64,000 nucleotides of DNA, from positions 330 through 64,329 of IMG/VR virus record IMGVR_UViG_3300012667_000235, one strand, 5' to 3'. Under the pieces are notes generated by a model. It was given only the letters and a program-made list of their open reading frames with translations. It did no database searches and had not been told where the DNA came from. Source of the DNA: a virus. Of the stretch, positions 2,548 through 18,649 are shown in pieces; within the stretch, counting starts at the first letter, position 1, and each line of letters starts with the position of its first letter. Made by a program: the position numbers and the translations under genes.

Positions 2548-3918
2548 GCAGCTTTCGCAGGTAAGAGTTTTTGCTTACTTGGAAGCATGTTACCAATTAT
2601 CAGTAATCCCGGAACTCGTGCTGTAATTATCCGTAAAACTACTAAAATGTTATCGGGTTCTGGTGGTTTATTTGATGCAGCTATCAATCTTTATTCCAAG
2701 ATTGATCCCAAGATGAAGATTAAGAGTAGAGATTTAACTATTATATTTTCATCTGGTGCAGAACTGCAGTTTACATACTTAGATAAACCTGCTGACCGAA
2801 TGAATTTGCAAGGTAGAGAATACTCCAGAATTGCTTTCGATGAATGTCAGCAATTAGACGGTGACAACGTATTCTATGCATTAAGTCGTTTACGCTCTAC
2901 TCGTGTTAAATACCCATTACAAGCACATGCTACGTGCAATCCTGATCCAAGTTCATTCTTGATGCAGTTTGTAGAGCATATGCTTGATGAGAATCTTGTA
3001 CCAATTAGGCAAGATAAATATAAAGAACGCTACTTTATTAAAGATAGCTCTGGATTTACTTTTTACGATGATAAAGAAGAGGCACATCGTGTTCACGGTG
3101 CTGGTAAAGAAAATCCTGTAAAATCATACTGCTTTATTCCCGGAAGTATTTATGATAATCCAATAGGTCTTGAACAAAATAAAGACTATATCTCTACACT
3201 TAAAGCCCTACCTCCTGTTGAATCAAGAAGATTATTGCATGGTGCTTGGGTACGTGAACAACGAAGTGGTTATTTCAAGAGAGAATGGGCAGAATTTGTA
3301 AACTATCCTAATATTAGGGCAAGCCGTAGATGCCGTGCTTGGGACTTAGCTTTTAGTGAAGCGTCTGAATCAAAACCTCGTGTCGATGCTACCGCAGGTG
3401 TATTAGTATCAAAAGAAGATAGAACAAATAAATATACCGTAGAAGATGTAATTACTCTACGTAAAAGAGTACACGAAGTTGAACAAGCTATTTTTCAAAC
3501 AGCGGAACGTGATGGAAGAGATTGTATTATATCACTTCCACTTGATCCGGGAGCTACTGCTAGTGCTTATTGTAAAGATTTATCAAGAAGATTATCTGAA
3601 CGAGGATTTACTGTAAAACTTACTCGACCAGATAGAGGTAAACTTCAAAGATTTTTACCATTTGCTTCTGTAGCCGAAGCTGGTTTTGTATCTGTTGTTA
3701 GAACAGATTGGACAGAAGATTACATAAATGAATTAGAGCAAACAGAGTTTAATAATAAAACATTTGATGACCAATGTGATGCTACTTCTGATGCTTTTTT
3801 TCATTTGAATAAGACTTTGCAGTTACCTACATTTTCACTACCTGATTTATCTCAAACTCCAGCATATAGTATTAATCCTACAGGTAGTATCCCTATCTCT
3901 GGTGTAACAATTCCATAA
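2548..3918 (+). CDS. terL: terminase large subunit, exon 2 (ATPase Walker A AAFAGKS, Walker B IAFDECQQL, C-terminal nuclease domain)
   Basis: In-frame ORF open from 2488 with no start codon before M2587, yet it carries GKS just upstream of that M. Walker B-like AFDEC. Size and position between small terminase and portal fit terL. Confidence 0.85.
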   Translation, partial: AAFAGKSFCLLGSMLPIISNPGTRAVIIRKTTKMLSGSGGLFDAAINLYSKIDPKMKIKSRDLTIIFSSGAELQFTYLDKPADRMNLQGREYSRIAFDECQQLDGDNVFYALSRLRSTRVKYPLQAHATCNPDPSSFLMQFVEHMLDENLVPIRQDKYKERYFIKDSSGFTFYDDKEEAHRVHGAGKENPVKSYCFIPGSIYDNPIGLEQNKDYISTLKALPPVESRRLLHGAWVREQRSGYFKREWAEFVNYPNIRASRRCRAWDLAFSEASESKPRVDATAGVLVSKEDRTNKYTVEDVITLRKRVHEVEQAIFQTAERDGRDCIISLPLDPGATASAYCKDLSRRLSERGFTVKLTRPDRGKLQRFLPFASVAEAGFVSVVRTDWTEDYINELEQTEFNNKTFDDQCDATSDAFFHLNKTLQLPTFSLPDLSQTPAYSINPTGSIPISGVTIP

Positions 3919-3942: not shown

Positions 3943-5421
3943 ATGGCTAGAACTAAACAAAATCAAGTCCAAGTAGAAAAGGCTATTGCACCTTCTGATA
4001 AACCTGAAAGGTTTCAGCTTGGTGAAGTAGGATATAGTGGGTTAAATCTATTTAATGGTGTAACTAACGAAGAAGTTAAAAGAGAATTAAATTGGCCTTA
4101 TAGTGCAGAGACATATAAGGAAATGAGTTATCATTCTGCTATTAATTCTTGTTTAAGCCTATACGATAGTTTAATCTCTAAAGTTGATTGGAGAGTACTT
4201 CCTCCAAAAGATGCAACCGAAAAAGAAAAGCAAGAAACTGAATTTGTAAATCAATGTATTGGTGACATGGAGAATTCTTTCCGTGATTTCATCAAAGATG
4301 CATTATCCAGTAACATTTATGGCTTCTCTATCCATGAGAAAGTATTCCGTAGACGTTATAAATCAAATGGCAGTTTATATGATGACGGTAAAATAGGTTT
4401 AAGAAAACTTGCTTTACGTAATCAAGAATCAATTTACAGATTTATTTATGATACAGATGGTAATAACATCGTAGGTGTAGAACAAGTTGTAAATGGGTAT
4501 AATAATCAAAGATATGGTAATCTAAATCAGACTAATATTATTCTACCACGCAGTAAATATGTTCATATTACTGTTGGTCGTAATAGAAATGATCCATTCG
4601 GTAAATCACCGTTACGTGATGTTTACTTAGCATGGAGATATCTGACTGTTATTCAAGAGATTGAAGCAGCAGGTGTAGCTCGTGATTTACAAGGTTTACC
4701 AGTTCTTGAGATTCCTGCACAGTATATGTCAGCAGATGCTTCTGCAGAGCAGAAAGCTATTTACGAGAACTTTAAGAATATTATTCGTAATATCCAAAAT
4801 AATAGCCAATCTGGTATTATTCTTCCTTCTGCTACAGATCCTGATACTCGTGCAAAACTATTTTCTCTTACTCTACTAAATAGTGACGGTAAGAAATCAT
4901 TCGATACAGGTAAGGTAAAAGACTTTTATCAGAATCAGATTTATACTGGTCTTGCTTGTGATCTTTTGATTATGGGTCAATCTGGTGTAGGCTCATTTGC
5001 ATTAGGTGCTTTAAAGAGTAGCATTACTGGTGCATATCTTGAATCAATGCTTGATAATATCGTAGAGATATTCAATCGTGATGTTATTCGTCAATTGTAT
5101 GATCTAAATGGGTTTGATGCTTCTCGTGCATGTTCATTAGATTATGACAATCTACATGCAGTTGATCTAGAAGGTCTGTCCAAGGCTTATCAGCGCATGG
5201 GTGCTACTGGTTTCCTACCTAAGACGGTTGATGTTATTAATCGCGGTCTTACTGCACTTGGTATTGATGAATTACCAGAAGGTACTAATTTAGATGAAGT
5301 TCTTCCTGATAGTACTACCCGCAGTGGTGATGGTATGAAAGAAGGATTGAATTCTGGTACAGGAAGTGCAGATGGATCAGGTGGTGATTCTTCAGCTAGT
5401 AACGCAGATAATACGGCTTAA
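3943..5421 (+). CDS. portal protein
   Basis: 492-aa ORF immediately downstream of terL with an AAGGAG RBS. Gly/Ser/Asp-rich C-terminal tail. Size and position are typical of portal proteins. Confidence 0.7.
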   Translation: MARTKQNQVQVEKAIAPSDKPERFQLGEVGYSGLNLFNGVTNEEVKRELNWPYSAETYKEMSYHSAINSCLSLYDSLISKVDWRVLPPKDATEKEKQETEFVNQCIGDMENSFRDFIKDALSSNIYGFSIHEKVFRRRYKSNGSLYDDGKIGLRKLALRNQESIYRFIYDTDGNNIVGVEQVVNGYNNQRYGNLNQTNIILPRSKYVHITVGRNRNDPFGKSPLRDVYLAWRYLTVIQEIEAAGVARDLQGLPVLEIPAQYMSADASAEQKAIYENFKNIIRNIQNNSQSGIILPSATDPDTRAKLFSLTLLNSDGKKSFDTGKVKDFYQNQIYTGLACDLLIMGQSGVGSFALGALKSSITGAYLESMLDNIVEIFNRDVIRQLYDLNGFDASRACSLDYDNLHAVDLEGLSKAYQRMGATGFLPKTVDVINRGLTALGIDELPEGTNLDEVLPDSTTRSGDGMKEGLNSGTGSADGSGGDSSASNADNTA

Positions 5422-5422
5422 T

Positions 5423-5821
5423 ATGAAATTAAAATCAATTATAACATCCATCATTTTAGCTGTATTAATGCACTCTGCGTTTGCTACATTACCAGCCCCC
5501 GGAACAGAAGGGGCTATTAATGATCCTAGATACTGCGGAGAGCCAGCAAGAGATAAGAACGGTAAGATTAAACGTAGTCAAACCGTTCTAAAGAAGTTTA
5601 CGGCTGTATTCCCTTGTCCGAGTACAATGTTACCAACAGCAAGCTGCCCTGATTGGGCAATCGATCATACCATTCCATTAGCAATGGGTGGTTGTGATAG
5701 TCAGGCTAATTTGACATGGCTACCTGATGCAATTAAAAGCTGTGCAGACGATGCTTGTAAAGACCGTTGGGAACGAAAGTATCATGCTATGCCACGACAA
5801 GTAATTGTTATACCGAAATAA
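5423..5821 (+). CDS. HNH (His-Me finger) nuclease with predicted N-terminal signal peptide or membrane anchor
   Basis: Start re-assigned to ATG 5423 (MKLKSIITSIILAVLMHSAFATLPAPG is hydrophobic and signal-like). HNH core CPDWAIDHTIPLAMGGCDSQANLTWLP...C..C..H. Confidence 0.6.
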   Translation: MKLKSIITSIILAVLMHSAFATLPAPGTEGAINDPRYCGEPARDKNGKIKRSQTVLKKFTAVFPCPSTMLPTASCPDWAIDHTIPLAMGGCDSQANLTWLPDAIKSCADDACKDRWERKYHAMPRQVIVIPK

Positions 5822-5840
5822 CGAAAGAAAAGAAATAATA

Positions 5841-6191
5841 ATGGCAGCTACCGTATTAAATTTATCTATCGAACAAGGAATTCCTTATTATAAGGAACTT
5901 CTGGTAAAAGACCCAAATGGTGCTAATAAGAATCTTACTGGTTATACAGCAAGGATGCAATTTAGACCTTACATATCTAGCTCAGAAATTAGTTTGGATG
6001 CAACAACTGCTAATACCAAATTACTTATTGATACGGTTAACTCCTATGTAATTATTAATCTATCAGAAGCAGATACACAAGCATTGACATATACTAGTTA
6101 TAGTTACGATATAGAACTAGTAAGTGCAGCAAATAAACCAATTAGACTTGTTCAAGGCACTGTTAGCCTAAATCAAGAAGTAACTCGATAA
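5841..6191 (+). CDS. hypothetical protein (beta-rich, possible virion protein)
   Basis: First in-frame ATG of ORF 5805..6191. No recognisable motif. Confidence 0.4.
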   Translation: MAATVLNLSIEQGIPYYKELLVKDPNGANKNLTGYTARMQFRPYISSSEISLDATTANTKLLIDTVNSYVIINLSEADTQALTYTSYSYDIELVSAANKPIRLVQGTVSLNQEVTR

Positions 6192-6219
6192 TCAACTCAA
6201 ATAAACATTAAGGATTCCT

Positions 6220-6714
6220 ATGCCTATTCTAACAACTGACATTGTATACCGTCTAAGCGGTGGTGCTGCTAATGCTGACCCTCTCCTATCTCTAGGTGGA
6301 GCTAAATCAGCTAATGCTGCTAGTACAAATATTTATGACGATGTATCAAGCGCAGAAGCTACTGCTGGTGATATTGAATATCGTTGCGTTTATATTCATA
6401 ATGGTCATGCTACCCTATCTTACCTAGGTTCAAAGATTTGGGTTCAAACCAATACTCCTTCTGCAGATACTACCGTAGCTATTGGTCTAGGTACTTCTGG
6501 TCTAAATGCAACAGAACAGACTGTAGCTAATGAAAATACGGCTCCTGTAGGCGTTACCTTTAGTTCTCCTGTTGATTTTGCAGGTGGTCTGCTAATGGGT
6601 GATATTCCTGCTGGTCAGCACTATGCAGTTTGGATTCGTCGTACAGTTAATGCCGCTGCCGCTGCAGTTGCCGATAGCTTTACACTACGTGTTCAAGGCG
6701 ATACTAATCCCTAA
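6220..6714 (+). CDS. hypothetical Gly/Ala/Thr-rich protein, fibre-like
   Basis: 164 aa with a low-complexity G/A/T/S composition. Part of the co-oriented cluster following the portal gene. Confidence 0.4.
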   Translation: MPILTTDIVYRLSGGAANADPLLSLGGAKSANAASTNIYDDVSSAEATAGDIEYRCVYIHNGHATLSYLGSKIWVQTNTPSADTTVAIGLGTSGLNATEQTVANENTAPVGVTFSSPVDFAGGLLMGDIPAGQHYAVWIRRTVNAAAAAVADSFTLRVQGDTNP

Positions 6715-6719
6715 TTAAT

Positions 6720-7073
6720 ATGCCTTATTTTGCAGATCGTGTGCAGGAAACAGTATCTGGTACTCCGGGTACTGGCCCTATTACATTAGGTGGTGCTGTA
6801 GTAAAGTTTCAAACATTTGCCAATGGATTTGATGAAAAACCTTGTTTCATTGGCTACGCTATTGAAGATGGTAATGATTGGGAAGTTGGTAAGGGTACAC
6901 TAAATAGCACAGGCACTGTACTCACTCGTGATGTATTACGTAGTAGCAGTACAGGTTCTCTATTAAATCTAACATCTGCTGCTGTTGTATTCTGTACACC
7001 TTCTGCAGAACATATTGATAATTCAAATATTGGGCATCAGTACGCGCAAGTACGTGGATTGCCTCTACCATAA
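6720..7073 (+). CDS. putative tail-fibre/receptor-binding N-terminal domain protein
   Basis: 117 aa. The N-terminal pattern ADRVQETVSGTPGTGPITLGGA...YAIEDGNDWEVGKGTL resembles conserved N-termini of phage fibre proteins. This is a recollection, not a search result. Confidence 0.35.
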   Translation: MPYFADRVQETVSGTPGTGPITLGGAVVKFQTFANGFDEKPCFIGYAIEDGNDWEVGKGTLNSTGTVLTRDVLRSSSTGSLLNLTSAAVVFCTPSAEHIDNSNIGHQYAQVRGLPLP

Positions 7074-7082
7074 GGAATAATA

Positions 7083-7817
7083 ATGGCTGGAAATTCAGAC
7101 CCAATTTATAGCAGACGAGGTGCTATTACTCGTAGCACTCTTCTTAAAACTGCTGCTGCTGATTATACTGGTGTATCTCCATATAATAAAGAAGTATTTT
7201 CTGCTGACGCAACTAATGGATCATATTTACAAAGAATACGTTTTAAGGCTATGGGTACAAATGCCGCAACTATTGCACGTGTTTATTTGAATGATGGTGA
7301 TATTACCGAAAACTTTGGAACAGCTATTGGTGCCCCAACTGGTACACCTTCTGGTACTGGTGGTAGTATTTTAGCAGGTACTTACTATGCTGTAATTATT
7401 GCGGTCAATGAAAAGAATATGTTAACACCAATCGGTACAATTTCTCTTGGTGTTGCTACTACTGGTTCTACTAGTTCAATTTCATGGAGTTGGACAGCAC
7501 AAGCTGGTGCTGTATCTTATCGTATTTATATTGGTAGTACTAACTCAACTGAAGCTTTAACTAGATATTTTACTAGTGCTACAAATAGTTATAGTCAAAC
7601 AACTATGCATTATAATGGAACTTATGATGATCCTAATGTTGGTAACTCTAAGTTCTATGGTGAAATTTCACTTCCAGCTACTACAGTTAATGTGGTGAGT
7701 CCAGATATTGATTATCCAATGAATATTGCTCTACCTCCCGGATGGGAAGTATACGTAGGACTAGTTACGGCTGTAGCTGCTGGTTGGAACATAACAGGTA
7801 TTGGTGGAGATTACTAA
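7083..7817 (+). CDS. hypothetical structural protein (T/S/G-rich, beta-sandwich-like)
   Basis: 244 aa with low-complexity T/S/G-rich composition. Directly followed by a chaperone-like gene. Confidence 0.4.
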   Translation: MAGNSDPIYSRRGAITRSTLLKTAAADYTGVSPYNKEVFSADATNGSYLQRIRFKAMGTNAATIARVYLNDGDITENFGTAIGAPTGTPSGTGGSILAGTYYAVIIAVNEKNMLTPIGTISLGVATTGSTSSISWSWTAQAGAVSYRIYIGSTNSTEALTRYFTSATNSYSQTTMHYNGTYDDPNVGNSKFYGEISLPATTVNVVSPDIDYPMNIALPPGWEVYVGLVTAVAAGWNITGIGGDY

Positions 7818-7818
7818 A

Positions 7819-8256
7819 ATGCAATATATTCTTATCAAGTTTCTTAATGATAATACACACGGATACCAAGAGATTTGCAGAGGGACTTTGGTAAGATATA
7901 CTGACCTTGATGGTGTTACTATTATACCTCATGGTTCTAATACAGTAGTTGATAGTAGTCCAGTACAACCATCATGGGCTTTAGAAGATACTCCTATACC
8001 TGTGGTTAAACCAGAAGTACCATCTGTAGTAAGTATGCGTCAGGCTCAATTAGCATTATTTCAATCTGGACTATTATCAAATATTCAACCAATTATAGAT
8101 GCGATGCCTGAACCTCAAAAGACAATTGCTAATATTGAATGGAATAAGGCAAGTGAAGTTCACAGATGTGAAGGATTTGCTATTAATATGGCAGGTTTAC
8201 TAGGTCTAACAGATAGCCAATTAGATGATTTATTTATTTTAGCAGGGACATTATAA
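7819..8256 (+). CDS. putative tail-fibre assembly chaperone
   Basis: The C-terminal segment QAQLALFQSGLLSNIQPIIDAMPEPQKTIANIEWNKASEVHRCEGFAINMAGLLGLTDSQLDDLFILAG matches the conserved Tfa/DUF4376-type chaperone C-terminus. Start set at the first ATG. Confidence 0.45.
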   Translation: MQYILIKFLNDNTHGYQEICRGTLVRYTDLDGVTIIPHGSNTVVDSSPVQPSWALEDTPIPVVKPEVPSVVSMRQAQLALFQSGLLSNIQPIIDAMPEPQKTIANIEWNKASEVHRCEGFAINMAGLLGLTDSQLDDLFILAGTL

Positions 8257-9180
8257 ATGCTTGATTTTTCTCATATACCAGAAAGTGTAGCAGATATTCA
8301 AGTATTTACAGGTAATTCTCCTACTGCTGGTGCAGTTTGGCAAACATGGGTTAAACCTCGTGGTAAGACCATGTGCAGTATTTGGATGGTTGGTAAAGGT
8401 GGCAATGGCGGTAATGGTGCTGTAGGTGCTGTTTCTGCTGCAGCAGGTGGAGGTGGAGGTGGTTCTGGTGGTATTATAACTTTATTAATACCTATGTCTG
8501 CTCTACCTAATATTTTATATCTATCACTTGCTGGACAATCTGCAACAACTACCCTTGCTAGTTATATTACTACATATCCTAGCGTTGTAGTTAACCATAC
8601 TATTGCTATTGCTAACGGTGGTGGTAATGGTGGTAATGCTTCCGCTGGTACTGGTGGTACTGCTGGTGGTGCAGGAGCGGCGTCTGCTGTAGGTTCAATG
8701 CCACTTGGTTGGCCTTTCAAACAACATACACCAGTAGCAAGTGCTCAGGGTGTAGCTGGTGCAGCAGGGGCTTCTGCAGTATATACAGCAGCACAGCTAA
8801 TTGTTGGTACTACTGTGTTCGGGGGTACAGGTGGTGCTGGTGTACCTGCTGCTGGTGCGGTAGGTAACATTAATGCTGGATATGCTGCTGTAGGTTCATT
8901 CCCTGCTCATACGTATGTTAATACTGCAACGGCAGCTACTTTACCCGGAACTCCCGGCCCTGATGGTATATTACCAATTCCCGGAATGAGAATAGCATTT
9001 GGTGGTTTAGGTGGCGGTTCTAGTCATGGTTCTGCTACAGGTGCTGGTTTATTTGGTGGTAAGGGTGGTAATGGTATTATGGGTTCTGGTGGTGGAGGTG
9101 GTGGAGGTTGCCTTACTGGTGGTACTGCTGGTCTAGGTGGACAAGGTGGCCCTGCTATGGCTATCATTACTTCTTTTTAA
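8257..9180 (+). CDS. glycine-rich protein, paralog A (307 aa)
   Basis: Conserved N-terminus MLDFSHIPE...FTGNSPT.G.VWQTW.KPRG.TMCSI..GKGGNGG. Long poly-Gly tracts (GGGGGGSGG). Shared internal MPLGWP motif. Tandem with its paralog 9190..10119. Confidence 0.6.
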   Translation: MLDFSHIPESVADIQVFTGNSPTAGAVWQTWVKPRGKTMCSIWMVGKGGNGGNGAVGAVSAAAGGGGGGSGGIITLLIPMSALPNILYLSLAGQSATTTLASYITTYPSVVVNHTIAIANGGGNGGNASAGTGGTAGGAGAASAVGSMPLGWPFKQHTPVASAQGVAGAAGASAVYTAAQLIVGTTVFGGTGGAGVPAAGAVGNINAGYAAVGSFPAHTYVNTATAATLPGTPGPDGILPIPGMRIAFGGLGGGSSHGSATGAGLFGGKGGNGIMGSGGGGGGGCLTGGTAGLGGQGGPAMAIITSF

Positions 9181-9189
9181 GGATTAACA

Positions 9190-10119
9190 ATGCTAGACTT
9201 TAGCCATATTCCAGAACGTACAATAGCTAACACTCAAATATTTACAGGTAATTCTCCTACCTTTGGTGAAGTATGGCAAACGTGGACTAAACCGAGAGGT
9301 GTTACCATGTGCTCTATTTTACTGCAAGGTAAAGGTGGTAACGGTGGCACTAGTGCTCCCGGAGCAGCTACTGCTATTGCTGGTGCCGGTGGTGGCAGCT
9401 CTGGTAATATGTGTCATCTTATAGTACCAGTGTCACATCTACCTGATACTTTGTACTTAACCTTAGCAGGTTATGGAAGTGCGTCCGGTGTAGTTAGTGC
9501 TATACAAATATCACCTAATACTGCAGTAGAAGGTAGACTTGCAAGCTGTGCAGGTGGTAACAATGGCGGTAATTCCAGCGGTGCTACTAGAGGTACTGGT
9601 GGTACGGCTCCAACAATAGCCACCAACTTAACTATGCCACTAGGCTGGCCTTATACACAATTTGTTGTGGCTGGTCAAGCTGGAACTAACGGTGGTGCAT
9701 CTCAAGCCGCTGGTAGTAATCTAACTATTCCAGTTACTGGTGCAATTGCTACTGGTGGTACTGGTGGTGGTGGTATTGATAGTGCAACAGGTACTTCTGG
9801 TTTGGTGGGCGGTTCATTTACTATAACAGCAGGTGCTGATTTTCCTGCACATGCTGGAGGTACTGCTGGCACTACTACTGCAATGGTTCCGGGTGCTGGT
9901 AAAAATGGATATAAGCTTCCAGATAAACTATTCTTCTATGGTGGTACTGGTGCTGGTAGTTCATACAATGCTGCTACAGGTGCAGGTCTAGTCCAATCTC
10001 CTGCTGGTGCCGGTGGATATGGATCGGGTGGTGGTGGATTAGCTGCTTCACAGACAGGTTCTGTTGCACAACCAGCCGCACTTGGTGGCCCTGCTCTTTG
10101 CATAATTACCTGCTGGTAA
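9190..10119 (+). CDS. glycine-rich protein, paralog B (309 aa)
   Basis: Same N-terminal about 45 aa, MPLGWPY motif and C-terminal ALGGPALCIITCW as paralog A (which ends GGPAMAIITSF). Confidence 0.6.
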   Translation: MLDFSHIPERTIANTQIFTGNSPTFGEVWQTWTKPRGVTMCSILLQGKGGNGGTSAPGAATAIAGAGGGSSGNMCHLIVPVSHLPDTLYLTLAGYGSASGVVSAIQISPNTAVEGRLASCAGGNNGGNSSGATRGTGGTAPTIATNLTMPLGWPYTQFVVAGQAGTNGGASQAAGSNLTIPVTGAIATGGTGGGGIDSATGTSGLVGGSFTITAGADFPAHAGGTAGTTTAMVPGAGKNGYKLPDKLFFYGGTGAGSSYNAATGAGLVQSPAGAGGYGSGGGGLAASQTGSVAQPAALGGPALCIITCW

Positions 10120-10150
10120 TATTTTATAACAAAATTATATTGGTAAACTT

Positions 10151-11689
10151 ATGAGTACTACAGGCAGTTTTCTTGGCTTTGGCCCAATCGCATCTTCACC
10201 AATAGCTTCAGTTCAAACTGCTGCAGTATCCGGTAGTACAGTACTCAAGGACATTTTAGCGTCCTATCTGATTAAAGCAAGTATAACAACAGATAGGACT
10301 GCTACTTTTAATATTAGAACTAGTAGTAGTTCAGATAGAAGTGCAAGTTTTAACATTAGAACATCTGCACTTTCTGATAGAGCAGCTACTTATGTTATTA
10401 AGAGTGTTATTGCATCCGATAGAAGCTCCGCTTATAATATTAGAACCTTTGCGTTATCTGATAGAAACTCTACGTTCAATATTAGAACACTAACTACATC
10501 TGATAGATTATCAAACTTCAACATACGGTCGTTAGTATCATCTGACAGAAACTCTACGTTCAATATTAGAACACTAGCTACTTCAGATAGAAGTTCTGCG
10601 TTCAATATTCGTTCACTTGTAACTTCAGATAGAACAGCAAATTATAATTTAAGATTAACTGCTGTATCCAGTGCAATTGCTACCTATAATTTACGTAGTA
10701 GTATTCTTCAAGATATTACTAGTTCGTATAGTATTTTAGTTTCTGGTACTAGTGTACTATCAAGCCTATCTGGTGCATTTAATCTAAGAGCATTTACTCT
10801 TAGTTCACTAAATGAACTCTATAATGTAAGAACTCTTGCACAGTCAAACGAAAGTGCAACATATAATGTAAGAGCGGCTGTATCAAAAGATGAAGTAGCA
10901 TCTTTCAATATTAGGACAAATGCTCTCGCTAGTTTAGTAGAAGCGTTCTTAATTAGAAGTGCTGCAAGTTCAGACAGAGGTGCTACTTATAATATTAGAG
11001 CATCTAGACAAGCTGATGGCTCCTTTACATTCAATACACGTACATTAGCTAGTTCTGATGGTATTTATGCATTCAATATTAGAAATAATATTTTATCAAA
11101 TATATCACCTACATATAATGTACGAACTCTTGCACAATCAGATAAAGGTGCAGCTTACAATGTAAGAGCTTTAGTACTTTCAGATAGAACTGCAAGCTTT
11201 AATCTACGTGCATCAACTGCTACAGTACTGTCATCTGCATACAGCATACTTTCTGCTGCAAACGTAACTTCTAATCTAATTGTAAACTATAATGTTCGTA
11301 ATATTCTATCTAAGGATGGAAGTTATAGCTACAGTATTAGATCAACGATAAATACCAGCTTTGGTGTTTCTTACGTAATCAGATTAAATACGTCTGCTGA
11401 TACATCAAGTACCTATTTGATTAGAGCAGGTACGATATCTAGTTTATCTGAGCAATATAATGTTCGTGGTTCACTTGTCAAAGATGCAATCGCTACTTAT
11501 ATTATTCAAGGTCTTGCTCCTGTGCAAAAAGACCTTAGTGCTCTTTATAGTATTCTTCAAGAGATACTACCAGATGTAACAGTAGTGTATATAACTGAAA
11601 ATGATCGTAGCACTATTTCAGTATATGACAATGACGTTACGATAGTTCAACTATTAAATGATGATATCGTTTCGATCATTGCAAAATAA
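10151..11689 (+). CDS. tandem-repeat protein, about 30 copies of a 14-residue unit (x-[ST]-[FY]-N-[IV]-R-[TS]-x-x-x-S-D-R-x), predicted beta-solenoid
   Basis: A strict 14-aa periodicity is visible across most of the 512 aa. Adjacent units form an 84-bp higher-order repeat with near-identical DNA, for example around 10466-10492 and 10551-10577. Confidence 0.6.
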   Translation: MSTTGSFLGFGPIASSPIASVQTAAVSGSTVLKDILASYLIKASITTDRTATFNIRTSSSSDRSASFNIRTSALSDRAATYVIKSVIASDRSSAYNIRTFALSDRNSTFNIRTLTTSDRLSNFNIRSLVSSDRNSTFNIRTLATSDRSSAFNIRSLVTSDRTANYNLRLTAVSSAIATYNLRSSILQDITSSYSILVSGTSVLSSLSGAFNLRAFTLSSLNELYNVRTLAQSNESATYNVRAAVSKDEVASFNIRTNALASLVEAFLIRSAASSDRGATYNIRASRQADGSFTFNTRTLASSDGIYAFNIRNNILSNISPTYNVRTLAQSDKGAAYNVRALVLSDRTASFNLRASTATVLSSAYSILSAANVTSNLIVNYNVRNILSKDGSYSYSIRSTINTSFGVSYVIRLNTSADTSSTYLIRAGTISSLSEQYNVRGSLVKDAIATYIIQGLAPVQKDLSALYSILQEILPDVTVVYITENDRSTISVYDNDVTIVQLLNDDIVSIIAK

Positions 11690-11697
11690 GGACGCAA

Positions 11698-11913
11698 ATG
11701 CAATATAACACTCAGAAGCTATCGGAAGCTGTTCGCAACAGGTTAAATCAGGCACAGGAGCCTTCAGAAGCTCCTATCCCTAGCCACCTAGCAGCTATCA
11801 TACAAAAACGTGCTACAGCGGCTTCTGATGCGTCTAATACGGATGTGCGTAAGCCAATCAAGCAAGCGTTCTTAGGTAAGAGCTACACTAACTCAAATGC
11901 GTACTTGGATTAA
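11698..11913 (+). CDS. hypothetical protein
   Basis: 71-aa ORF closing the portal-proximal cluster. Confidence 0.3.
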   Translation: MQYNTQKLSEAVRNRLNQAQEPSEAPIPSHLAAIIQKRATAASDASNTDVRKPIKQAFLGKSYTNSNAYLD

Positions 11914-11945: not shown

Positions 11946-11974
11946 TTGACAACGCAGAGATTTCGTGATATAAT
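11946..11974 (+). promoter_or_regulatory. sigma70-type promoter (TTGACA-17-TATAAT)
   Basis: Perfect -35 TTGACA at 11946-11951, a 17-nt spacer and perfect -10 TATAAT at 11969-11974. Lies upstream of the head-morphogenesis genes. Confidence 0.55.
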
Positions 11975-12004: not shown

Positions 12005-12439
12005 ATGAATAAAATAAAAAATAAACCATATATACCACCCCATGCTGATTTCACAGATATAATTAAAAGTAGATTACCAGTTAGTAAATCGGTTAATGAA
12101 GAATTAAAACAAGTATTGTATGTGGTTATGCTACCAGATAGTACTGATTTACATGGTGATATTACATCTGAAGAAGAAGTTCGTAAAGCATGTCATAATT
12201 ATAATTCATCTGATATGAAGGCTAACTTATTTCACATGACTCAAACTAATACTTTTTCAGTGATAGAGTCATATATAGCACCTGTAGATTTTGTTTTAAA
12301 TGATGTTATAGTCAAGGCTGGTACTTGGTTAGCAAAATTACAGATTAACGATGATGTTGTTTGGGATTTAGTTAAATCAGGCGACATTTGTGCCGTATCT
12401 ATCGGCGCAGTAGCTAATGTTGAGGTACTTGATGAATAA
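12005..12439 (+). CDS. XkdF-like phage protease / head maturation protein
   Basis: The MLPDSTDLHGDITSEEEVRKACHNY segment resembles the XkdF-family D.HGD...E.I..A.H motif. Located upstream of scaffold and capsid genes. Confidence 0.4.
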   Translation: MNKIKNKPYIPPHADFTDIIKSRLPVSKSVNEELKQVLYVVMLPDSTDLHGDITSEEEVRKACHNYNSSDMKANLFHMTQTNTFSVIESYIAPVDFVLNDVIVKAGTWLAKLQINDDVVWDLVKSGDICAVSIGAVANVEVLDE

Positions 12440-13052
12440 TTTCTATGTTTATGTACATAGACGCTTAACAGATAATAAGCCTTTTTATGTAGGTAAAGGT
12501 TCGGGTAATCGTGCTTGGGACTTTACAGGTAGAAATATTTATTGGGAACGTATTAAAAATAAACATGGTGTTGCTGTAGATATTGTTTTTGATAACTTAA
12601 CAGAAGCAGAATCCTTTCAGTGTGAAATAGATACGATTCTTGAATTTAAATATTTTGACTATCCTCTTACTAATCTCACGAATGGTGGAGAAGGTTCATC
12701 AGGATTAAAATTTACAGATGAACAACGATTAAGAATTTCAAATTCTACTAAAGGAAAAGTACCTTGGAATAAAGGTATTAAGAAAGCTGATGATAAGCAA
12801 TATCTGTATTCAGATGAATATCGTGAAAAGCTAAGAGAAGCAAAATTAGGTGTATTTGCAAATGAAAATAATCCGTATGCTGATAAAACTGAATATTGCT
12901 TTGTTAGGTTATCAGATGGATTTGAAATAAGATGTACTCGACAATATTTAGTAAAACATTTTGGAGCCGATGGTGGGCTGATAAAGAAAATGTTCTACAA
13001 AAAGAACCCACGTAAATCCGGCAGTGGCTGGAAGTTGAAAGGAATAGTATGA
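12417..13052 (+). CDS. GIY-YIG homing endonuclease
   Basis: N-terminal FYVYVHRRLTDNKPFYVGKGSGNRAWDF is a GIY-YIG core. Inserted between the protease-like and scaffold genes. Confidence 0.8.
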   Translation: MLRYLMNNFYVYVHRRLTDNKPFYVGKGSGNRAWDFTGRNIYWERIKNKHGVAVDIVFDNLTEAESFQCEIDTILEFKYFDYPLTNLTNGGEGSSGLKFTDEQRLRISNSTKGKVPWNKGIKKADDKQYLYSDEYREKLREAKLGVFANENNPYADKTEYCFVRLSDGFEIRCTRQYLVKHFGADGGLIKKMFYKKNPRKSGSGWKLKGIV

Positions 13053-14077
13053 CAACACAACGAAAAGCTAAACGTAAATTAAGTAATATTGATTTTAGTG
13101 CTGATGGAGCACATATCGCTTTAGTATCTAAAGACCAAGGTGGTGGTGCAAATGGCGCTAACTACGCACTAATGCTCAAATCTGCAAATTTCTCCGATGA
13201 ATTCATTGAGAAAATGCAGCAAGTAAAAGTTACTCTAGAACTACCTGAGTTTCTACGTAGATTCTTTGGACTATGGTATGAGGATGCTGATGTTCTAGCC
13301 GCTATGATGGGTTATGTAGAACCAGTAGATACTGCTGCAATGGAAGCAGAAGAAGCTCAAAAAGAAGTCCAAAGCTGGATTGAAGAACGCATGAGCGCAT
13401 TTGAGATTATTAAGTCTCTTGAAAATGCAGAGTCAATTCCAGAGGTACTAAGTACACTAACTGAAGATCAATATCTAAATCTCCTTAAAGATCAAGAGAA
13501 ACTTGAGAAGGCATTTAAGAAAATTGATAAAGAAAAGAATTCCGCTAAAGCTCCAAAGGCTAAGGCAGATGAAGGCTCAACCGAAGCCGTAGCGAAAGCT
13601 GAACAATCGGATGATAAGACTGAAGCGAAGGTTGAACCTTCTGAAACCGTTAATAAAGGAAAAAGTATGACCAAAGAAGTCAAAACAGTTGAACAAGAAG
13701 TGACTGTAGAGATGGTTGAAAAATCAGCTTTTGAATCCGTCCAGAAACAACTGGAAGATCAGAAAGTTGAATTGCAAAAAGCTCTTGATTTAGTTAAGGC
13801 TTTTGAGCAAGAAAAGAAAGAAGCGATCCGTAAGGCTCGTTTTGAACAAGTTAAAACTGCTGTTAAGAATGATGCTACCGCTGAAGTTCTATTTAAGGCT
13901 GTTGGTCTTGTTGAAGATGAATCAGAATTCCAAGCTGTAGTTAAGGCTCTAGTCGAAATGCAAGCTGTAGTAGAAAAATCTGATTTGTTCGTAGAAAAGG
14001 GTGTGCAAATTGAAACTGAAGCTGCTCCGCAAGAGTCTGCAGTTGCAAAAATTCTAAAAGCCCGTTTATCTAAATAA
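13049..14077 (+). CDS. scaffolding protein
   Basis: 342 aa, highly charged Lys/Glu-rich with coiled-coil character (EQEKKEAIRKARFEQVK). Precedes the decoration and major capsid genes. Confidence 0.55.
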   Translation: MTTQRKAKRKLSNIDFSADGAHIALVSKDQGGGANGANYALMLKSANFSDEFIEKMQQVKVTLELPEFLRRFFGLWYEDADVLAAMMGYVEPVDTAAMEAEEAQKEVQSWIEERMSAFEIIKSLENAESIPEVLSTLTEDQYLNLLKDQEKLEKAFKKIDKEKNSAKAPKAKADEGSTEAVAKAEQSDDKTEAKVEPSETVNKGKSMTKEVKTVEQEVTVEMVEKSAFESVQKQLEDQKVELQKALDLVKAFEQEKKEAIRKARFEQVKTAVKNDATAEVLFKAVGLVEDESEFQAVVKALVEMQAVVEKSDLFVEKGVQIETEAAPQESAVAKILKARLSK

Positions 14078-14099
14078 TTTTAATTAAGGAAATATAGAA

Positions 14100-14498
14100 A
14101 TGTCCACTCCACTATACACTGAAAACAAACGCTACAGCAATACTGTAAAAGCTGAACTCTGGCCCGAAGTTGGTTACACCCGCGCTGTTGTAACTTATAA
14201 CGGAACTGCTGCAAACCTAGTTATCGGTCAGGTACTTGGTAAAGTAACTGCATCTGGTAAATACAAGATTGCTCTACAAGCTGCTGTTGACGGTTCACAA
14301 ACCGCTGACGCTATTGTTATTGAAGACAAGACTGCTGCTCTAAACACTGATACAACCGTTCTAGTGCTCCTAAAAGGGCCAGCCGTAGTATCCAAGGCTG
14401 CGCTAACCATCGATGCTTCATACACCGCTGGTGCTCTCCTAAATGGTGTTTATGCTACCCTTGAAGGTAAGGGTATCCAAGTTGCTGACGCTGTTTAA
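14100..14498 (+). CDS. putative head decoration protein
   Basis: 132 aa, Ala/Val/Thr-rich small protein immediately upstream of the major capsid gene, the lambda gpD position. Confidence 0.45.
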   Translation: MSTPLYTENKRYSNTVKAELWPEVGYTRAVVTYNGTAANLVIGQVLGKVTASGKYKIALQAAVDGSQTADAIVIEDKTAALNTDTTVLVLLKGPAVVSKAALTIDASYTAGALLNGVYATLEGKGIQVADAV

Positions 14499-14533: not shown

Positions 14534-15547
14534 ATGGCAACTATTCGCAGTTTTGATAAACCATTTGAAGTCGTAGACCTAACCGAAGAACTTAATCTAA
14601 TCCCTAATACATGGGGTCTAATTAACGAAATGGGTCTATTCCGTAACGAATCTGTTACCAACCACACTATCACTGTTGAAGCTACCTCTGGTACTCTAAG
14701 TGTTATTGGTGATACTGTTCGCGGTGCTCGTAACCTAGTAAACAAGGACGATACCCGCAACATTCGTGCTTTCAGCATTCCTCACTTCCCCCTAGATGAC
14801 GCAATCTCCCCTTCTGACCTACAAGGTAAACGTGCTTATGGTTCCGACCAAGCTGATACAGAAGCTGCTGTTGTTGCTCGTAAGCTAGAGCGCATTCGTC
14901 GTAACCACGCTGTTACAATGGAAGCTGGTCGTGCATATGCTCTAACCACTGGTGCAATTTATGCTCCTAACGGCACTGTAGTTGATAACTACTACACTTC
15001 TTTCGGTATTACCCGTAAGGAAATCGACTATGTACTCGGTACTACTACAACTGACGTTGTAGCTAAGATCGAAGAAGGTATCGCTCACATTCAAGACAAT
15101 ATCACTTCCGGTGAAGTTGTAAACTCTGTAACCGCTATCTGCTCACCAACCTTCTTTGCAAAGCTAATCGCTCACGCAAACATTAAGGCTGCTTACCAGT
15201 ACTACACCTCTACTCAAGAACCCCTACGTCAACGTCTAGGTTCTGGTGTATATCGTCGTTTCAGCCACGGTGGTATCGATTTCGTTGAATATCGTGGTTC
15301 TTACAACGGTACTCAGCTAATCACCGCTGGTGACGCTTATCTAGTCCCAATGGGTACACAAGATACATTCATTTCTTACTTCAGTCCAGCTAACAAGCTA
15401 TCTCTAGTAAATACTCTAGGTATGGAATCTTATGCATTCCAGTACCGTGATGCGCGTGACGAAGGTATCCTATTGCAGTCTGAAAGCAATCAACTACACC
15501 TAGTTCGCAGACCACAGGCGGTTGTACGCCTGTTCTCCAGCAACTAA
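14534..15547 (+). CDS. major capsid protein
   Basis: 337 aa in the decoration-then-capsid position (lambda D-E order). Followed by a strong terminator. Codon usage of a highly expressed gene. Confidence 0.65.
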   Translation: MATIRSFDKPFEVVDLTEELNLIPNTWGLINEMGLFRNESVTNHTITVEATSGTLSVIGDTVRGARNLVNKDDTRNIRAFSIPHFPLDDAISPSDLQGKRAYGSDQADTEAAVVARKLERIRRNHAVTMEAGRAYALTTGAIYAPNGTVVDNYYTSFGITRKEIDYVLGTTTTDVVAKIEEGIAHIQDNITSGEVVNSVTAICSPTFFAKLIAHANIKAAYQYYTSTQEPLRQRLGSGVYRRFSHGGIDFVEYRGSYNGTQLITAGDAYLVPMGTQDTFISYFSPANKLSLVNTLGMESYAFQYRDARDEGILLQSESNQLHLVRRPQAVVRLFSSN

Positions 15548-17431: not shown

Positions 17432-18649
17432 ATGGCAATTTCTAAAGCAGTCGCTAAACAGGTGGCTATTAAGCAAGAAACTACTTACGGTACACTAGCT
17501 GGTACTACTGGTGGTCGTTTACTTCGTCGCGTAACTTCTAACTTCAACCTAGTTAAAGATACATATTCTTCAAATGAAGTTCGTACTGATTACCAAGTTG
17601 CTGACTTCCGTCACGGTGTGCGTTCAGCCGAAGGTACAGTATCTGGTGAGTTTTCTCCCGGTTCTTATTCTGATCTATTTGCTGCTGCTCTAGCCAAGGA
17701 TTTCGTTGCTGGTGTAGCTATTACAGGTGCGGCTATTACCGTAGCAGCTTCTGCTTCTCAATATACACTAACTCGCGGTGCAGGTTCATATCTAACTGAT
17801 GGTTTCAAAGTTGGTGATGTTATTCGCATTACTGCTGCTACTGGTCTAAATGCAGATTGCTTGAATAAGAATCTACTTATCACCGCTCTAACTGCTACTG
17901 TAGCTACCGTATCTGTTCTAAATGGTTCTACAATGACCCCTGCTGCTGGTACTGCTGTATCTGTAAGTGTAACTGGTAAGAAAACATTCATTCCTCAAAC
18001 TGGTCATACTTCACGCTCATTTACTGTTGAAGAGTGGTATTCTGATATTGCTCAATCTGAAGTATTCACTGGTTGCAAAGTAAATACCATTGGTATTAAG
18101 ATTCCTGCTACTGGTATGTCAACCCTTGATATTGGTTTCATGGGTAAAGATTTAGCACAAACAGGTACTACTCAATACTTCACAACTCCGACAGCACTAG
18201 GTACTTCTGGTGTGTTCGCTGGCGTTAATGGTGTGGTTGTTTTCAACGGTACTCCTGTAGCTGTTATTACTGATGCATCCGTCAATATTAATCGTAATAT
18301 TGCTAGTGCTACCGTGCTAGGTTCTAACTCTGTTGCTGAATCTTTTGATGGTAAAGCAGACGTAAGCGGTACAATCAGCCTATACTTTACGGATGCTGTT
18401 GCTAAAGATGCATTCAAGAATGAAACCGAAGTTTCTCTAGTATTTACACTAACTGCTACTAATACCGCTACTTCTGATTTCGTAAGTGTAACGATTCCTC
18501 GTGCAAAGCTAAATTCTGCTGGTAAGTCAGAATCTGATGCTGGTATCACAATGTCTTGTGATTTCGTAGCTCTACTAGCTACTGCAGGTGGTGCAGGTAC
18601 TGCTTCCGAACTGTCTACAATCGTAGTACAAGATTCTGTAGCTGTTTAA
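17432..18649 (+). CDS. major tail (tube) protein with C-terminal Ig-like extension
   Basis: 405 aa. Sits upstream of the chaperone pair and tape measure. Followed by a strong terminator and promoter. Confidence 0.6.
   Translation: MAISKAVAKQVAIKQETTYGTLAGTTGGRLLRRVTSNFNLVKDTYSSNEVRTDYQVADFRHGVRSAEGTVSGEFSPGSYSDLFAAALAKDFVAGVAITGAAITVAASASQYTLTRGAGSYLTDGFKVGDVIRITAATGLNADCLNKNLLITALTATVATVSVLNGSTMTPAAGTAVSVSVTGKKTFIPQTGHTSRSFTVEEWYSDIAQSEVFTGCKVNTIGIKIPATGMSTLDIGFMGKDLAQTGTTQYFTTPTALGTSGVFAGVNGVVVFNGTPVAVITDASVNINRNIASATVLGSNSVAESFDGKADVSGTISLYFTDAVAKDAFKNETEVSLVFTLTATNTATSDFVSVTIPRAKLNSAGKSESDAGITMSCDFVALLATAGGAGTASELSTIVVQDSVAV

Follow-up and report, generated by a model that had tools for sequence, protein, structure and literature searches.

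The question raised by this locus is what kind of protein is built almost wholly from one 14-residue unit, and where in a phage it might act. The locus lies in a 64,000-nt stretch of DNA from an uncultured tailed phage (here called the window; IMG/VR record IMGVR_UViG_3300012667_000235, positions 330 to 64,329), in which an open reading frame at 10151..11689 (+ strand), beginning with ATG, encodes 512 aa plus a stop. The frame is supported by the ORF list, by its periodicity, and by an intact ortholog in a related contig. We give about an even chance to the reading that the product is a virion fibre shaft, probably attached to the head or neck. The repeat, its family, domain fusions, gene neighborhoods, and purifying selection are shown; virion location, oligomeric state, exact fold, and role in adhesion are all points that we infer.

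The initial annotation proposed a strict 14-residue period of about 30 units spanning the ORF, and both the period and the count are borne out. Identity of the protein to itself is 0.281 at a lag of 14 residues, 0.295 at 28, 0.27 at 42, and 0.26 at 56, and is 0.05–0.11 at all remaining lags; at lag 14 the value exceeds that of the best lag in shuffled sequences by 25 SD (n = 2000 shuffles). The core [FYW]-x-[ILVT]-[RKLQ] occurs 31 times between residues 39 and 469, with spacings of exactly 14 except for one of 17 and two of 16, all three behind units containing YSIL. The 31 units thus counted cover nearly the whole protein, in runs of 12, 12, and 7, with 2–3 extra residues between runs, each time after a YSIL unit. 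The motif first offered for the unit, x-[ST]-[FY]-N-[IV]-R-[TS]-x-x-x-S-D-R-x, fits units 2–9 well, but the full set is looser: N4 is found in 21/31 units, R6 in 25/31, S11 in 18/31, D12 in 20/31, and R13 in just 11/31. Positions 1, 3, 5, 7, and 9 (A, Y/F, I/V, small, and V/A) make up a hydrophobic face and positions 2, 4, 6, 8, and 10, including the near-invariant Arg, a polar one; a 4-residue turn around Asp12 follows this two-faced stretch. Glycine accounts for 2.9% of the protein and is conserved at no unit position. Neither a signal peptide nor a transmembrane segment was found in the 512-aa sequence.

Five parts can be distinguished along the gene (all + strand). The N-terminal 36 aa (MSTTGSFLGFGPIASSPIAS...; 10151..10258) contain a short duplicated Gly/Pro-hydrophobic motif; other family members without a LamG domain have similar duplicated motifs at their start, and this segment is likely to be the end attached to the virion, an anchoring role that we infer. 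Repeat block 1 (10259..10762) comprises 12 units of 14 aa (residues 37–204), the last of them SSYSILVSGTSVLS, followed by 3 extra residues; block 2 (10772..11275) comprises another 12 (residues 208–375), ending in SAYSILSAANVTSN and followed by 2 extra residues; and block 3 (11282..11533) has 6 (residues 378–461). The C-terminal cap (residues 462–512; 11534..11686) consists of a last, degenerate unit, ALYSILQEILPDVT, and about 35 aa of beta-type sequence (VVYITENDRSTISVYDNDVTIVQLLNDDIVSIIAK). This cap is common to seven other family proteins (P0002, P0011, P0012, P0026, P0034, P0047, and P0066) and to the proteins of loci L010, L015, and L028.

At the DNA level there is much less repetition than was initially described. 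An 84-bp higher-order repeat with near-identical copies had been proposed; the only long exact repeat in the gene is a single 30-nt pair (10463..10492 and 10547..10576, both + strand), offset by 84 nt, and the coordinates given for the second copy (10551–10577) were off by one. Unit-to-unit DNA identity averages 46%, with 86% for the best pair, and units two apart (0.475) show no real gain over neighbors (0.471). TRF reports a 42-bp period only, over 10456–10634, with 64–65% matches. The proposal of recent unit duplication is therefore unsupported, since the units are old and diverged. Length variation, also suggested, does occur among distant relatives (223–864 aa and longer), but the one close ortholog, at 14184–15725 of contig L010, keeps 31 units, the same number as in the window. 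It is an intact 513-aa frame, and the repeat protein is under purifying selection, with a dN/dS of about 0.22 against this ortholog, vs. about 0.10 for the capsid protein. Conservation is greatest in residues 1–25 (80% identity, dN 0.17; other parts have dN of 0.31–0.42). Megablast with the gene as query matched none of 50,697 phage records, and a search for close relatives of the protein in IMG/VR found none.

The repeat itself is widespread. A word-index protein search gave only three matches, and another, run with a repeat profile of 56 columns, found nothing; phmmer yields 630 representatives at E ≤ 1e-3, 228 of them at E ≤ 1e-10. The resulting family, of at least 630 clusters at 50% identity, shares the unit a-s-[YWF]-n-[IV]-R-x-a-V-x-x-D-x-a, a consensus built from 851 units. 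A protein counts as a member if it has at least four units spaced exactly 14 residues apart, in which position 3 is aromatic, 5 is I or V, 6 is R, 9 is V, A, or I, and 12 is frequently D; the window protein, with 31 units, belongs to the family. Among the top matches, P0016, which comes from a rodent and has a 14-mer of an unrelated kind, was discarded as a false positive. The family has no public name: cluster names of the ten top matches are “hypothetical” or absent, and neither the window protein nor its relatives match any model in Pfam, NCBIfam, or PHROGs, including Phage_fiber (PF03335) and Phage_fiber_2 (PF03406). A search of PDB sequences with the family profile was likewise negative, in agreement with the original remark that no characterized family has this 14-mer. 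Arrays in environmental phages reach several dozen units, and in relatives the array comes after LamG lectin, glycosidase, or beta-helix (pectate-lyase-type) domains. LamG_3 was found on 24/86 and 6/34 of the family members scanned; Beta_helix, Spherulin4, SASA, GH16, and Peptidase_S8 domains are also fused to the repeat.

The genomic setting bears on where such a protein might be located. In the window, the repeat gene is the last of a variable cassette that is flanked by the genes for the portal and the prohead protease. The rest of this cassette (5805..10119, + strand) encodes proteins of 128 aa (phrog_1084), 164 aa (here p164), 117 aa, 244 aa, and 151 aa (phrog_6034), and two tail-fibre-like Gly-rich paralogs (8257–9180 and 9190–10119); the gene order is the same in L010. 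Cassette neighbors match Gly_rich_2 and PHROGs of tail-fibre type: phrog_863 (“tail fiber assembly”), phrog_356 (“minor tail protein”), and phrog_3304 (“L-shaped tail fiber protein assembly”). Annotations such as “tail fibre assembly” and “minor tail” would suit a side tail fibre equally well. The stand-alone gene also lies between portal and XkdF-type protease genes in L004, L007, L010, L015, and L016; in L018 it comes after an SPP1-type portal gene and before minor capsid and coat genes, in L005 between the major capsid and connector genes, and in L019 upstream of the tail-tube and tape-measure genes. Across about ten independent loci, representing several head-gene lineages, it is found by portal, capsid, or connector genes and never by tail-tip genes.

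A second constant feature is p164 itself (6220..6714, + strand; phrog_13135, 2063 homologs), which is encoded on the same strand within 4 kb upstream of every stand-alone 14-mer gene examined (the window, L004–L010, L015, L016, L018, and L019). In KVP40 its homolog is encoded in the wac-13-14-15 block, with neck gene 15 on one side and gene 16 on the other. The link to the repeat is not exclusive: in 67 of 80 IMG/VR loci, as well as in KVP40, p164 is unaccompanied by a 14-mer protein. Its AlphaFold model is a beta-sandwich (pLDDT 79, pTM 0.80) for which a fold search gave no significant or informative match, so that p164 structure does not decide between head and tail placement; we consider it a candidate docking or adaptor protein. 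No paper in the literature searched mentions KVP40.0353 or phrog_13135. The nearest cultured relative, P26059A, has none of the 14-residue repeat; the paper on it describes only a plain siphovirus with a 62-nm head and a 153-nm tail and uses none of the words fibre, fiber, and repeat, and neither that paper nor those on Limnohabitans phages have anything on these genes.

Taken together, these features suggest how the protein could work. Each of the 31 units would contribute one amphipathic beta-strand and a tight Asp-centered turn, and stacking of the units would give a long all-beta rod of regular build, probably oligomeric, with the 36-residue N-terminus as its likely point of attachment and a conserved module of about 50 C-terminal residues as its cap. 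Because the rod is fused to LamG lectins, glycosidases, and pectate-lyase-type beta-helices in relatives, its role there would be that of a spacer, keeping sugar-binding or sugar-cutting modules away from the particle. The window version is without such a domain and probably acts together with the two Gly-rich paralogs and p164. Since stand-alone genes are always in head/neck gene order and never at the tail tip, the fibre would be attached to the head or neck, where it might help in a first, reversible contact with the host surface. Counting against this are the use of the array at the tail tip in its only cultured carriers, the tail-type annotations of several neighbors, the absence of the repeat from P26059A, the many p164 genes unaccompanied by a 14-mer protein, and the low confidence of the structure model.

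The same protein could instead belong to the tail, as a side fibre or as an accessory of the central fibre, with its gene in the head block by chance; the N-terminus would then bind the tail tip or baseplate region, and the protein would be receptor-binding. In Aeromonas Casjensviridae phages this repeat does form the distal end of a gpJ-like protein, and both the PHROG matches of the cassette neighbors and the fusion of enzymatic domains such as the beta-helix, typical of tailspikes, point the same way. The window, however, already has in its tail module a gpJ-like 1901-aa protein (24787–30492, matching phrog_31, “central tail fiber J”) and a 510-aa fibre-like protein, and the stand-alone gene is consistently placed by head and connector genes; we regard a tail fibre as possible, though rather unlikely. 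That the protein is not part of the virion at all seems very improbable; it would then be an intracellular or secreted product, serving for example in takeover of the host, in exclusion, or in modifying the surface, whose gene simply occupies a variable “moron” slot. The slot between portal and protease is indeed highly variable between related contigs, but the gene is embedded among structural genes and co-directional with them, a tail-tip protein contains a homolog of its repeat, it has no export or membrane signal, and its relatives carry lectin and depolymerase domains typical of virion adhesins.

A further alternative concerns architecture: a monomeric beta-solenoid, with two units per coil in a two-sheet, curli-like stack, would make a compact adhesin block decorating the capsid in place of a long oligomeric fibre. 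AlphaFold2, run on the monomer, predicts an all-beta protein with a 9–11-residue strand and a 3–5-residue turn in nearly every unit; with the alternating faces and the Asp12 turn, this agrees with the beta-strand core and polar turn initially proposed for each period. Confidence in the model is low, however: mean pLDDT is 57 and pTM 0.42, the five models ranging from 40 to 57; blocks 2 and 3 are best predicted (pLDDT 65–75), the most regular units (residues 117–206) fall below 50, and the cap is modeled as a helix (462–472) with low confidence beyond. The best Foldseek matches in the PDB are parallel beta-helices and solenoids (SufB/D, an ice-binding protein, CsgA, FapC, and LpxD) but are insignificant (E ≥ 0.1, TM ≤ 0.24), and a BFVD search gave nothing significant. 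AlphaFold is also given to over-predicting solenoids for repeats. With insignificant matches and low model confidence, the beta-solenoid reading is plausible and goes no further. The slightly higher identity at lag 28 than at lag 14 would fit a two-unit coil, and the columns of Asn, of aromatic residues, and of Arg/Asp could stack as ladders. Unit covariation (mutual information with APC correction, 1422 unit pairs) showed neither an antiparallel nor a two-unit-coil signature, only a same-position signal that is equal at unit distances of 1, 2, and 3; a two-unit coil is therefore unsupported, and the signal reflects homogeneity within proteins and not contacts. Phage fibres, moreover, are normally trimers. 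A monomeric capsid-decorating block is accordingly, in our estimation, unlikely.

The head- or neck-attached fibre shaft remains the reading that we prefer, and a broader and more speculative proposal can be built on it: that the 14-residue unit forms a fibrous beta fold unseen in solved structures, and that with p164 it makes up a widespread, exchangeable head/neck-fibre system of tailed phages, in which p164 docks and the 14-mer rods are one of several interchangeable fibres bearing lectin or depolymerase heads. Such a system would be present in many uncultured siphoviruses, with p164 alone extending to KVP40-like myoviruses. As a whole this is tentative, and we would sooner expect it to fail than to hold.

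Fibres and spikes decide which bacteria a phage attaches to, and most fibre shafts known so far are, to our knowledge, made from one of a few repeat types. Among environmental phages the present repeat is common, and its fusion partners include lectin and sugar-cleaving domains, yet neither a family model nor a solved structure covers it. A solved structure would provide a new building block, of use both in annotating phage proteins now called “hypothetical” and in engineering the length of fibres; should the head/neck placement be correct, there would also be a hint that siphoviruses have a class of accessory adhesion fibres that has been overlooked. On this reading the protein type, a fibre shaft, is already known, and it is the repeat variant that is new.

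Several known systems resemble parts of this picture. The YadA-like heads of trimeric autotransporter adhesins, left-handed parallel beta-rolls with 14 residues per turn and a similar hydrophobic spacing, show that a 14-residue coil is physically possible, and Fusobacterium CbpF (PDB 9u93) gives a weak in-register match to the window protein alone (E = 0.005). Their Gly positions (SxAxGxxAxAxGxx) are absent here, however, as are the aromatic and Arg of this family there; with no Pfam match to PF05658 at E ≤ 0.1, no conserved Gly, and the CbpF match lost with the family profile, this assignment was rejected. Triple beta-spiral shafts (adenovirus fibre, reovirus sigma1) are thin trimeric fibres of short strand-plus-turn repeats with hydrophobic alternation in the first strand. 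The window repeat shares the short strand-plus-turn units and the alternating hydrophobic positions, but its period is exactly 14, without a Gly or Pro column, where the beta-spiral has 15–16 residues and a conserved Gly/Pro turn, and no PDB chain is similar in sequence; its repeat signature is not that of a beta-spiral. In proposed role and gene placement, the likeness is to the phi29 gp8.5 head fibre and the T4 fibritin/wac whiskers, accessory fibres that aid adsorption and whose genes adjoin those of the head or neck; these, however, are built of helices (as a coiled coil or a helix-turn-helix supercoil) and not of beta repeats, and they are unrelated in sequence.

Two further systems share the repeat itself. 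Metagenomic LamG_3 proteins (such as P0011, P0012, P0026, and P0001) have the same unit and a C-terminal “LYSIL...VVY...” cap, and their genes, like that of the window, lie downstream of p164 between portal and protease genes; they differ in that a LamG domain of concanavalin type, about 240 aa long, stands at the N-terminus and is combined with only about 15–20 units, compared to an N-terminus of 36 aa and 31 units in the window protein. The only cultured carriers, Aeromonas Casjensviridae phages (BUCT552, QVW27843.1; vB_C4, XLZ95813.1; phiA034; BUCT551; AVP3; and PhAER-6), use the array at the tip of the tail and not on the head, in a gpJ-like “putative tail protein” where it is unannotated and unstudied as a repeat. 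These arrays are sequence homologs of the window repeat (tblastn E down to 1e-28), with the same period and a Y-N-[LV]-R core: about 22 units of LLAPYNLRSTVQAE form the C-terminus of a 1476–1526-aa protein. The gpJ core and Phage-tail_3 domain of that protein are absent from the window protein (by Pfam), and conversely the Aeromonas array has no C-terminal cap and no p164 neighbor; its units are also nearly identical to one another (lag-14 identity up to 0.96), unlike those of the window. Because the array is there part of a tail-tip protein, it is part of a virion fibre in those phages, and as cultured representatives BUCT552 and vB_C4 open the repeat to experiment.

The protein encoded at 10151-11689 (+; ATG start, 512 aa) can be aligned by eye in 14-residue rows. 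Its self-identity is 0.28, 0.30, 0.27, and 0.26 at lags of 14, 28, 42, and 56 residues and 0.05-0.11 at all other lags; the best lag in shuffled versions was 0.120 ± 0.006 (n = 2000; observed z = 25). Between aa 39 and 469 there are 31 copies of a [FYW]-x-[ILVT]-[RKLQ] core, spaced at exactly 14 residues except for three intervals (17, 16, and 16), each after a unit with the sequence YSIL. From this count and these breaks, it follows that the N-terminus spans 36 aa and that the units fall into runs of 12, 12, and 6, after which a degenerate final unit begins a C-terminal module of ~50 aa. Over the 31 units, position 1 is A/S; 2, T/S/A; 3, Y (19) or F (12); 4, N (21); 5, I (20), V (6), or L (4); 6, R (25); 9, A/I/T/V; 11, S (18); 12, D (20); and 13, R (11). 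The initial annotation had proposed a strict 14-aa period of about 30 units, which these values bear out; its 14-residue motif fits the first block well but later ones only loosely.

The same annotation described an 84-bp higher-order DNA repeat and recent unit duplication, and neither survives closer inspection. The only long identical DNA stretch is a single 30-nt pair (10463-10492 and 10547-10576), the second copy of which had been placed one nucleotide off; TRF finds a 42-bp period alone (10456-10634, 64-65% matches), and units at a distance of two resemble each other no more than adjacent ones do. With a mean DNA identity between units of 46%, the array is old and diverged, not recently amplified. 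By contrast, the C-terminal units of Aeromonas phages BUCT552 and vB_C4 are nearly identical to one another (lag-14 identity up to 0.96), which suggests recent amplification or homogenisation there. Unit number differs between the tail proteins of these two phages.

Unit positions 1, 3, 5, 7, and 9 are hydrophobic, the even positions from 2 to 10 are polar (including the near-invariant Arg), and a polar turn around Asp occupies positions 11-14, a pattern that fits one amphipathic strand and a tight turn per unit. AlphaFold2, run with an 86-sequence alignment, predicted just this, with strands 9-11 residues long, turns of 3-5 residues, and an additional helix at 462-472, at low confidence (mean pLDDT 57, pTM 0.42; 40-57 over five models; residues 117-206 below 50, best region 280-450 at 65-75). 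The evidence supports a regular all-beta repeat structure and is compatible both with a solenoid of one chain and with an intertwined trimeric fibre; inter-unit covariation was uninformative. A Foldseek search of the PDB gave nothing below E = 0.099, the top matches (not significant, TM ≤ 0.24) being parallel beta-helices or solenoids (SufB/D, an ice-binding protein, CsgA, FapC, and LpxD), and a BFVD search gave nothing useful. Of the beta-solenoid first proposed, the strand and turn per unit are thus reproduced, but the fold itself is not secured by matches and a pLDDT at these levels. The protein also matches, in register, the YadA-type 14-residue head repeats of Fusobacterium CbpF (phmmer, E = 0.005). 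Membership of that group was rejected, as the family profile matches no PDB sequence and the defining glycines are missing; the comparison serves only to show that 14-residue coils exist.

No model in Pfam, PHROGs, or NCBIfam matches the protein, in agreement with the initial annotation, and a literature search found no paper on the repeat. An exhaustive phmmer search (1.84 billion representatives) returned 630 proteins at E ≤ 1e-3, of which 228 reach E ≤ 1e-10, and the repeat is common in environmental phages; P0016, a rodent protein among the top matches, is a false positive with an unrelated 14-mer. The family consensus, from 851 units in 138 runs, is a-s-[Y68 W16 F14]-n-[I43 V40 L12]-[R84]-x-a-[V41 A22 I12]-x-x-[D46]-x-a (percentages). 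Most frequently, an N-terminal LamG_3 domain (a concanavalin-type lectin domain of ~240 aa, ending NPWQxF) is followed by 15-20 units, and larger members add Beta_helix, Spherulin4, SASA esterase, GH16, Big_7/TIG, or Peptidase_S8 domains. A LamG-less subfamily (223-513 aa) starts, as the window protein does, with a short duplicated Gly/Pro-hydrophobic motif, and many members, again including this one, end in a cap, ...LYSIL(Q/E)D..PD..VVY.... Among 50,697 cultured-phage records, only Aeromonas Casjensviridae phages carry the repeat: their gpJ-like tail-tip protein, of 1476-1526 aa and with a Phage-tail_3 domain, ends in about 22 nearly identical units (LLAPYNLRSTVQAE). This is the sole case in which the array lies demonstrably within a virion fibre protein.

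The window comes from a metagenomic contig of 64,329 bp (P0152). The genome is of siphovirus type and has a distant relative in Curvibacter phage P26059A (74.7% nucleotide identity, in the capsid region only). The large terminase (2587-3918) and portal (3943-5421) precede a variable cassette (5805-11913), followed by an XkdF-type protease (12005-12439), a putative GIY-YIG endonuclease (12417-13052, +) at the position of an annotated P26059A gene, a scaffold-like gene (13049-14077), the major capsid (14534-15547), the tail tube (17432-18649), a 1402-aa ORF named by its tape-measure position (19684-23892), and a gpJ-like protein (24787-30492). There is an overlap between the 3′ end of the protease gene and the 12417-13052 ORF, after which comes the scaffold-like gene; at 144 aa, the protease ORF is shorter than that of P26059A (255 aa). 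Overlapping the portal 3′ end is a 151-aa ORF (5366-5821, +) with a hydrophobic N-terminal segment and an HNH-like motif (DHTIPLAMGG...N), for which no PHROG match was found.

The cassette, in which no complete gene follows the repeat gene, also encodes a 128-aa protein (phrog_1084), the 164-aa protein p164 (6220-6714, +; phrog_13135), proteins of 117, 244, and 151 aa (the last phrog_6034), and two tandem Gly-rich paralogs (8257-9180 and 9190-10119, +; 307 and 309 aa; 25% and 22% Gly). These share 44% identity from end to end and the same start, MLDFSHIPE; the first weakly matches phrog_863 (“tail fiber assembly”), the second has no PHROG match, and their counterpart in the related contig L010 carries Pfam Gly_rich_2. 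A perfect sigma-70 consensus (11946-11974, +; TTGACA, 17 nt, TATAAT, with an upstream TG; 12/12 matches) lies directly upstream of the prohead-protease gene, dividing the cassette from the protease-scaffold-capsid genes. A 71-aa ORF at 11698-11913 (+) shows 60% identity to residues 1-66 of a 357-aa protein whose gene follows the repeat gene in L010, and a 13-aa match to the C-terminus of that protein comes directly after the ORF; the region resembles what an internal deletion would leave of a fibre-like gene.

L010 has the same cassette (p164 85% and capsid protein 83% identical), with an intact 513-aa ortholog of the repeat protein, so the interruption that would have counted against a functional gene is not seen there. 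Termini match and unit number is equal (~31), with the YSIL breaks placed differently (blocks of roughly 6, 10, 8, and 7); total length looks constrained. The first 25 residues are best conserved (80% identity). A dN/dS of ~0.22 (294 alignable codons, dS saturated), vs. ~0.10 for the capsid protein and p164, places the protein under purifying selection, with faster change than in core head proteins.

Independently found stand-alone 14-mer genes lie between portal and protease in four other loci (L004, L007, L015, and L016), between an SPP1-type portal and the minor-capsid and P22-type coat genes in L018, between an HK97-type capsid gene and connector genes in L005, and immediately upstream of tail-tube and tape-measure genes in L019. 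All seven have a p164 homolog ≤4 kb upstream. In L004, a second 14-mer protein with an Ig/FN3-like N-terminal region (13427-14161) lies two genes downstream of the first (P0002) and is truncated by the contig edge. The association is not mutual: a 14-mer ORF is present in 13 of 80 IMG/VR p164 loci, in each case 3′ of p164 and co-directional with it, with other genes there in the remainder; L014 has large uncharacterised proteins after p164, up to a Neck1 gene. P26059A has at the equivalent slot, last before the protease, a different repeat protein (6296-7480, 394 aa) of 21-aa period (self-identity 0.28 at lags 21 and 42), which also begins with a short duplicated hydrophobic motif (FDSAVFDxAIF). 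Metagenomes are very rich in p164 (2063 homologs, of which the top 120 have 67% identity or more); the only cultured phages with it are KVP40-like Vibrio myoviruses, whose copy sits between neck gene 15 and terminase gene 16, beside wac-13-14. Its AlphaFold model is a beta-sandwich (pLDDT 79, pTM 0.80) with no significant PDB match. The slot thus accommodates interchangeable repeat or fibre proteins, and its place in the genome is that of head or neck genes rather than tail-tip genes.

A fibre shaft is the best-supported reading of the window protein, since the array belongs to a tail-tip fibre protein in Aeromonas phages and is elsewhere joined to lectin and depolymerase-type domains of the kind usual in phage adhesins, and since the protein evolves faster than core head proteins and is best conserved at its N-terminus, as in most phage fibres. 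It would be a “shaft-only” form, for which the adjacent Gly-rich proteins are natural candidates as partner or tip. That such a fibre sits on the head or neck, as gene order in several unrelated head-gene lineages and the p164 association suggest, is about as likely as not. A tail-located fibre would match the Aeromonas placement but not the genomic address, and seems rather doubtful. A compact monomeric solenoid decoration, which overlaps with head placement, is unlikely, and a non-virion role, for a gene set among head genes, very improbable.

Interest in the protein would grow if its fold proves new, or if p164 with exchangeable fibres proves to be a general head or neck appendage system. 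Phage proteins that form fibres from short beta repeats are already known; what is new is this 14-residue repeat, which lies outside Pfam, NCBIfam, PHROGs, and the PDB.
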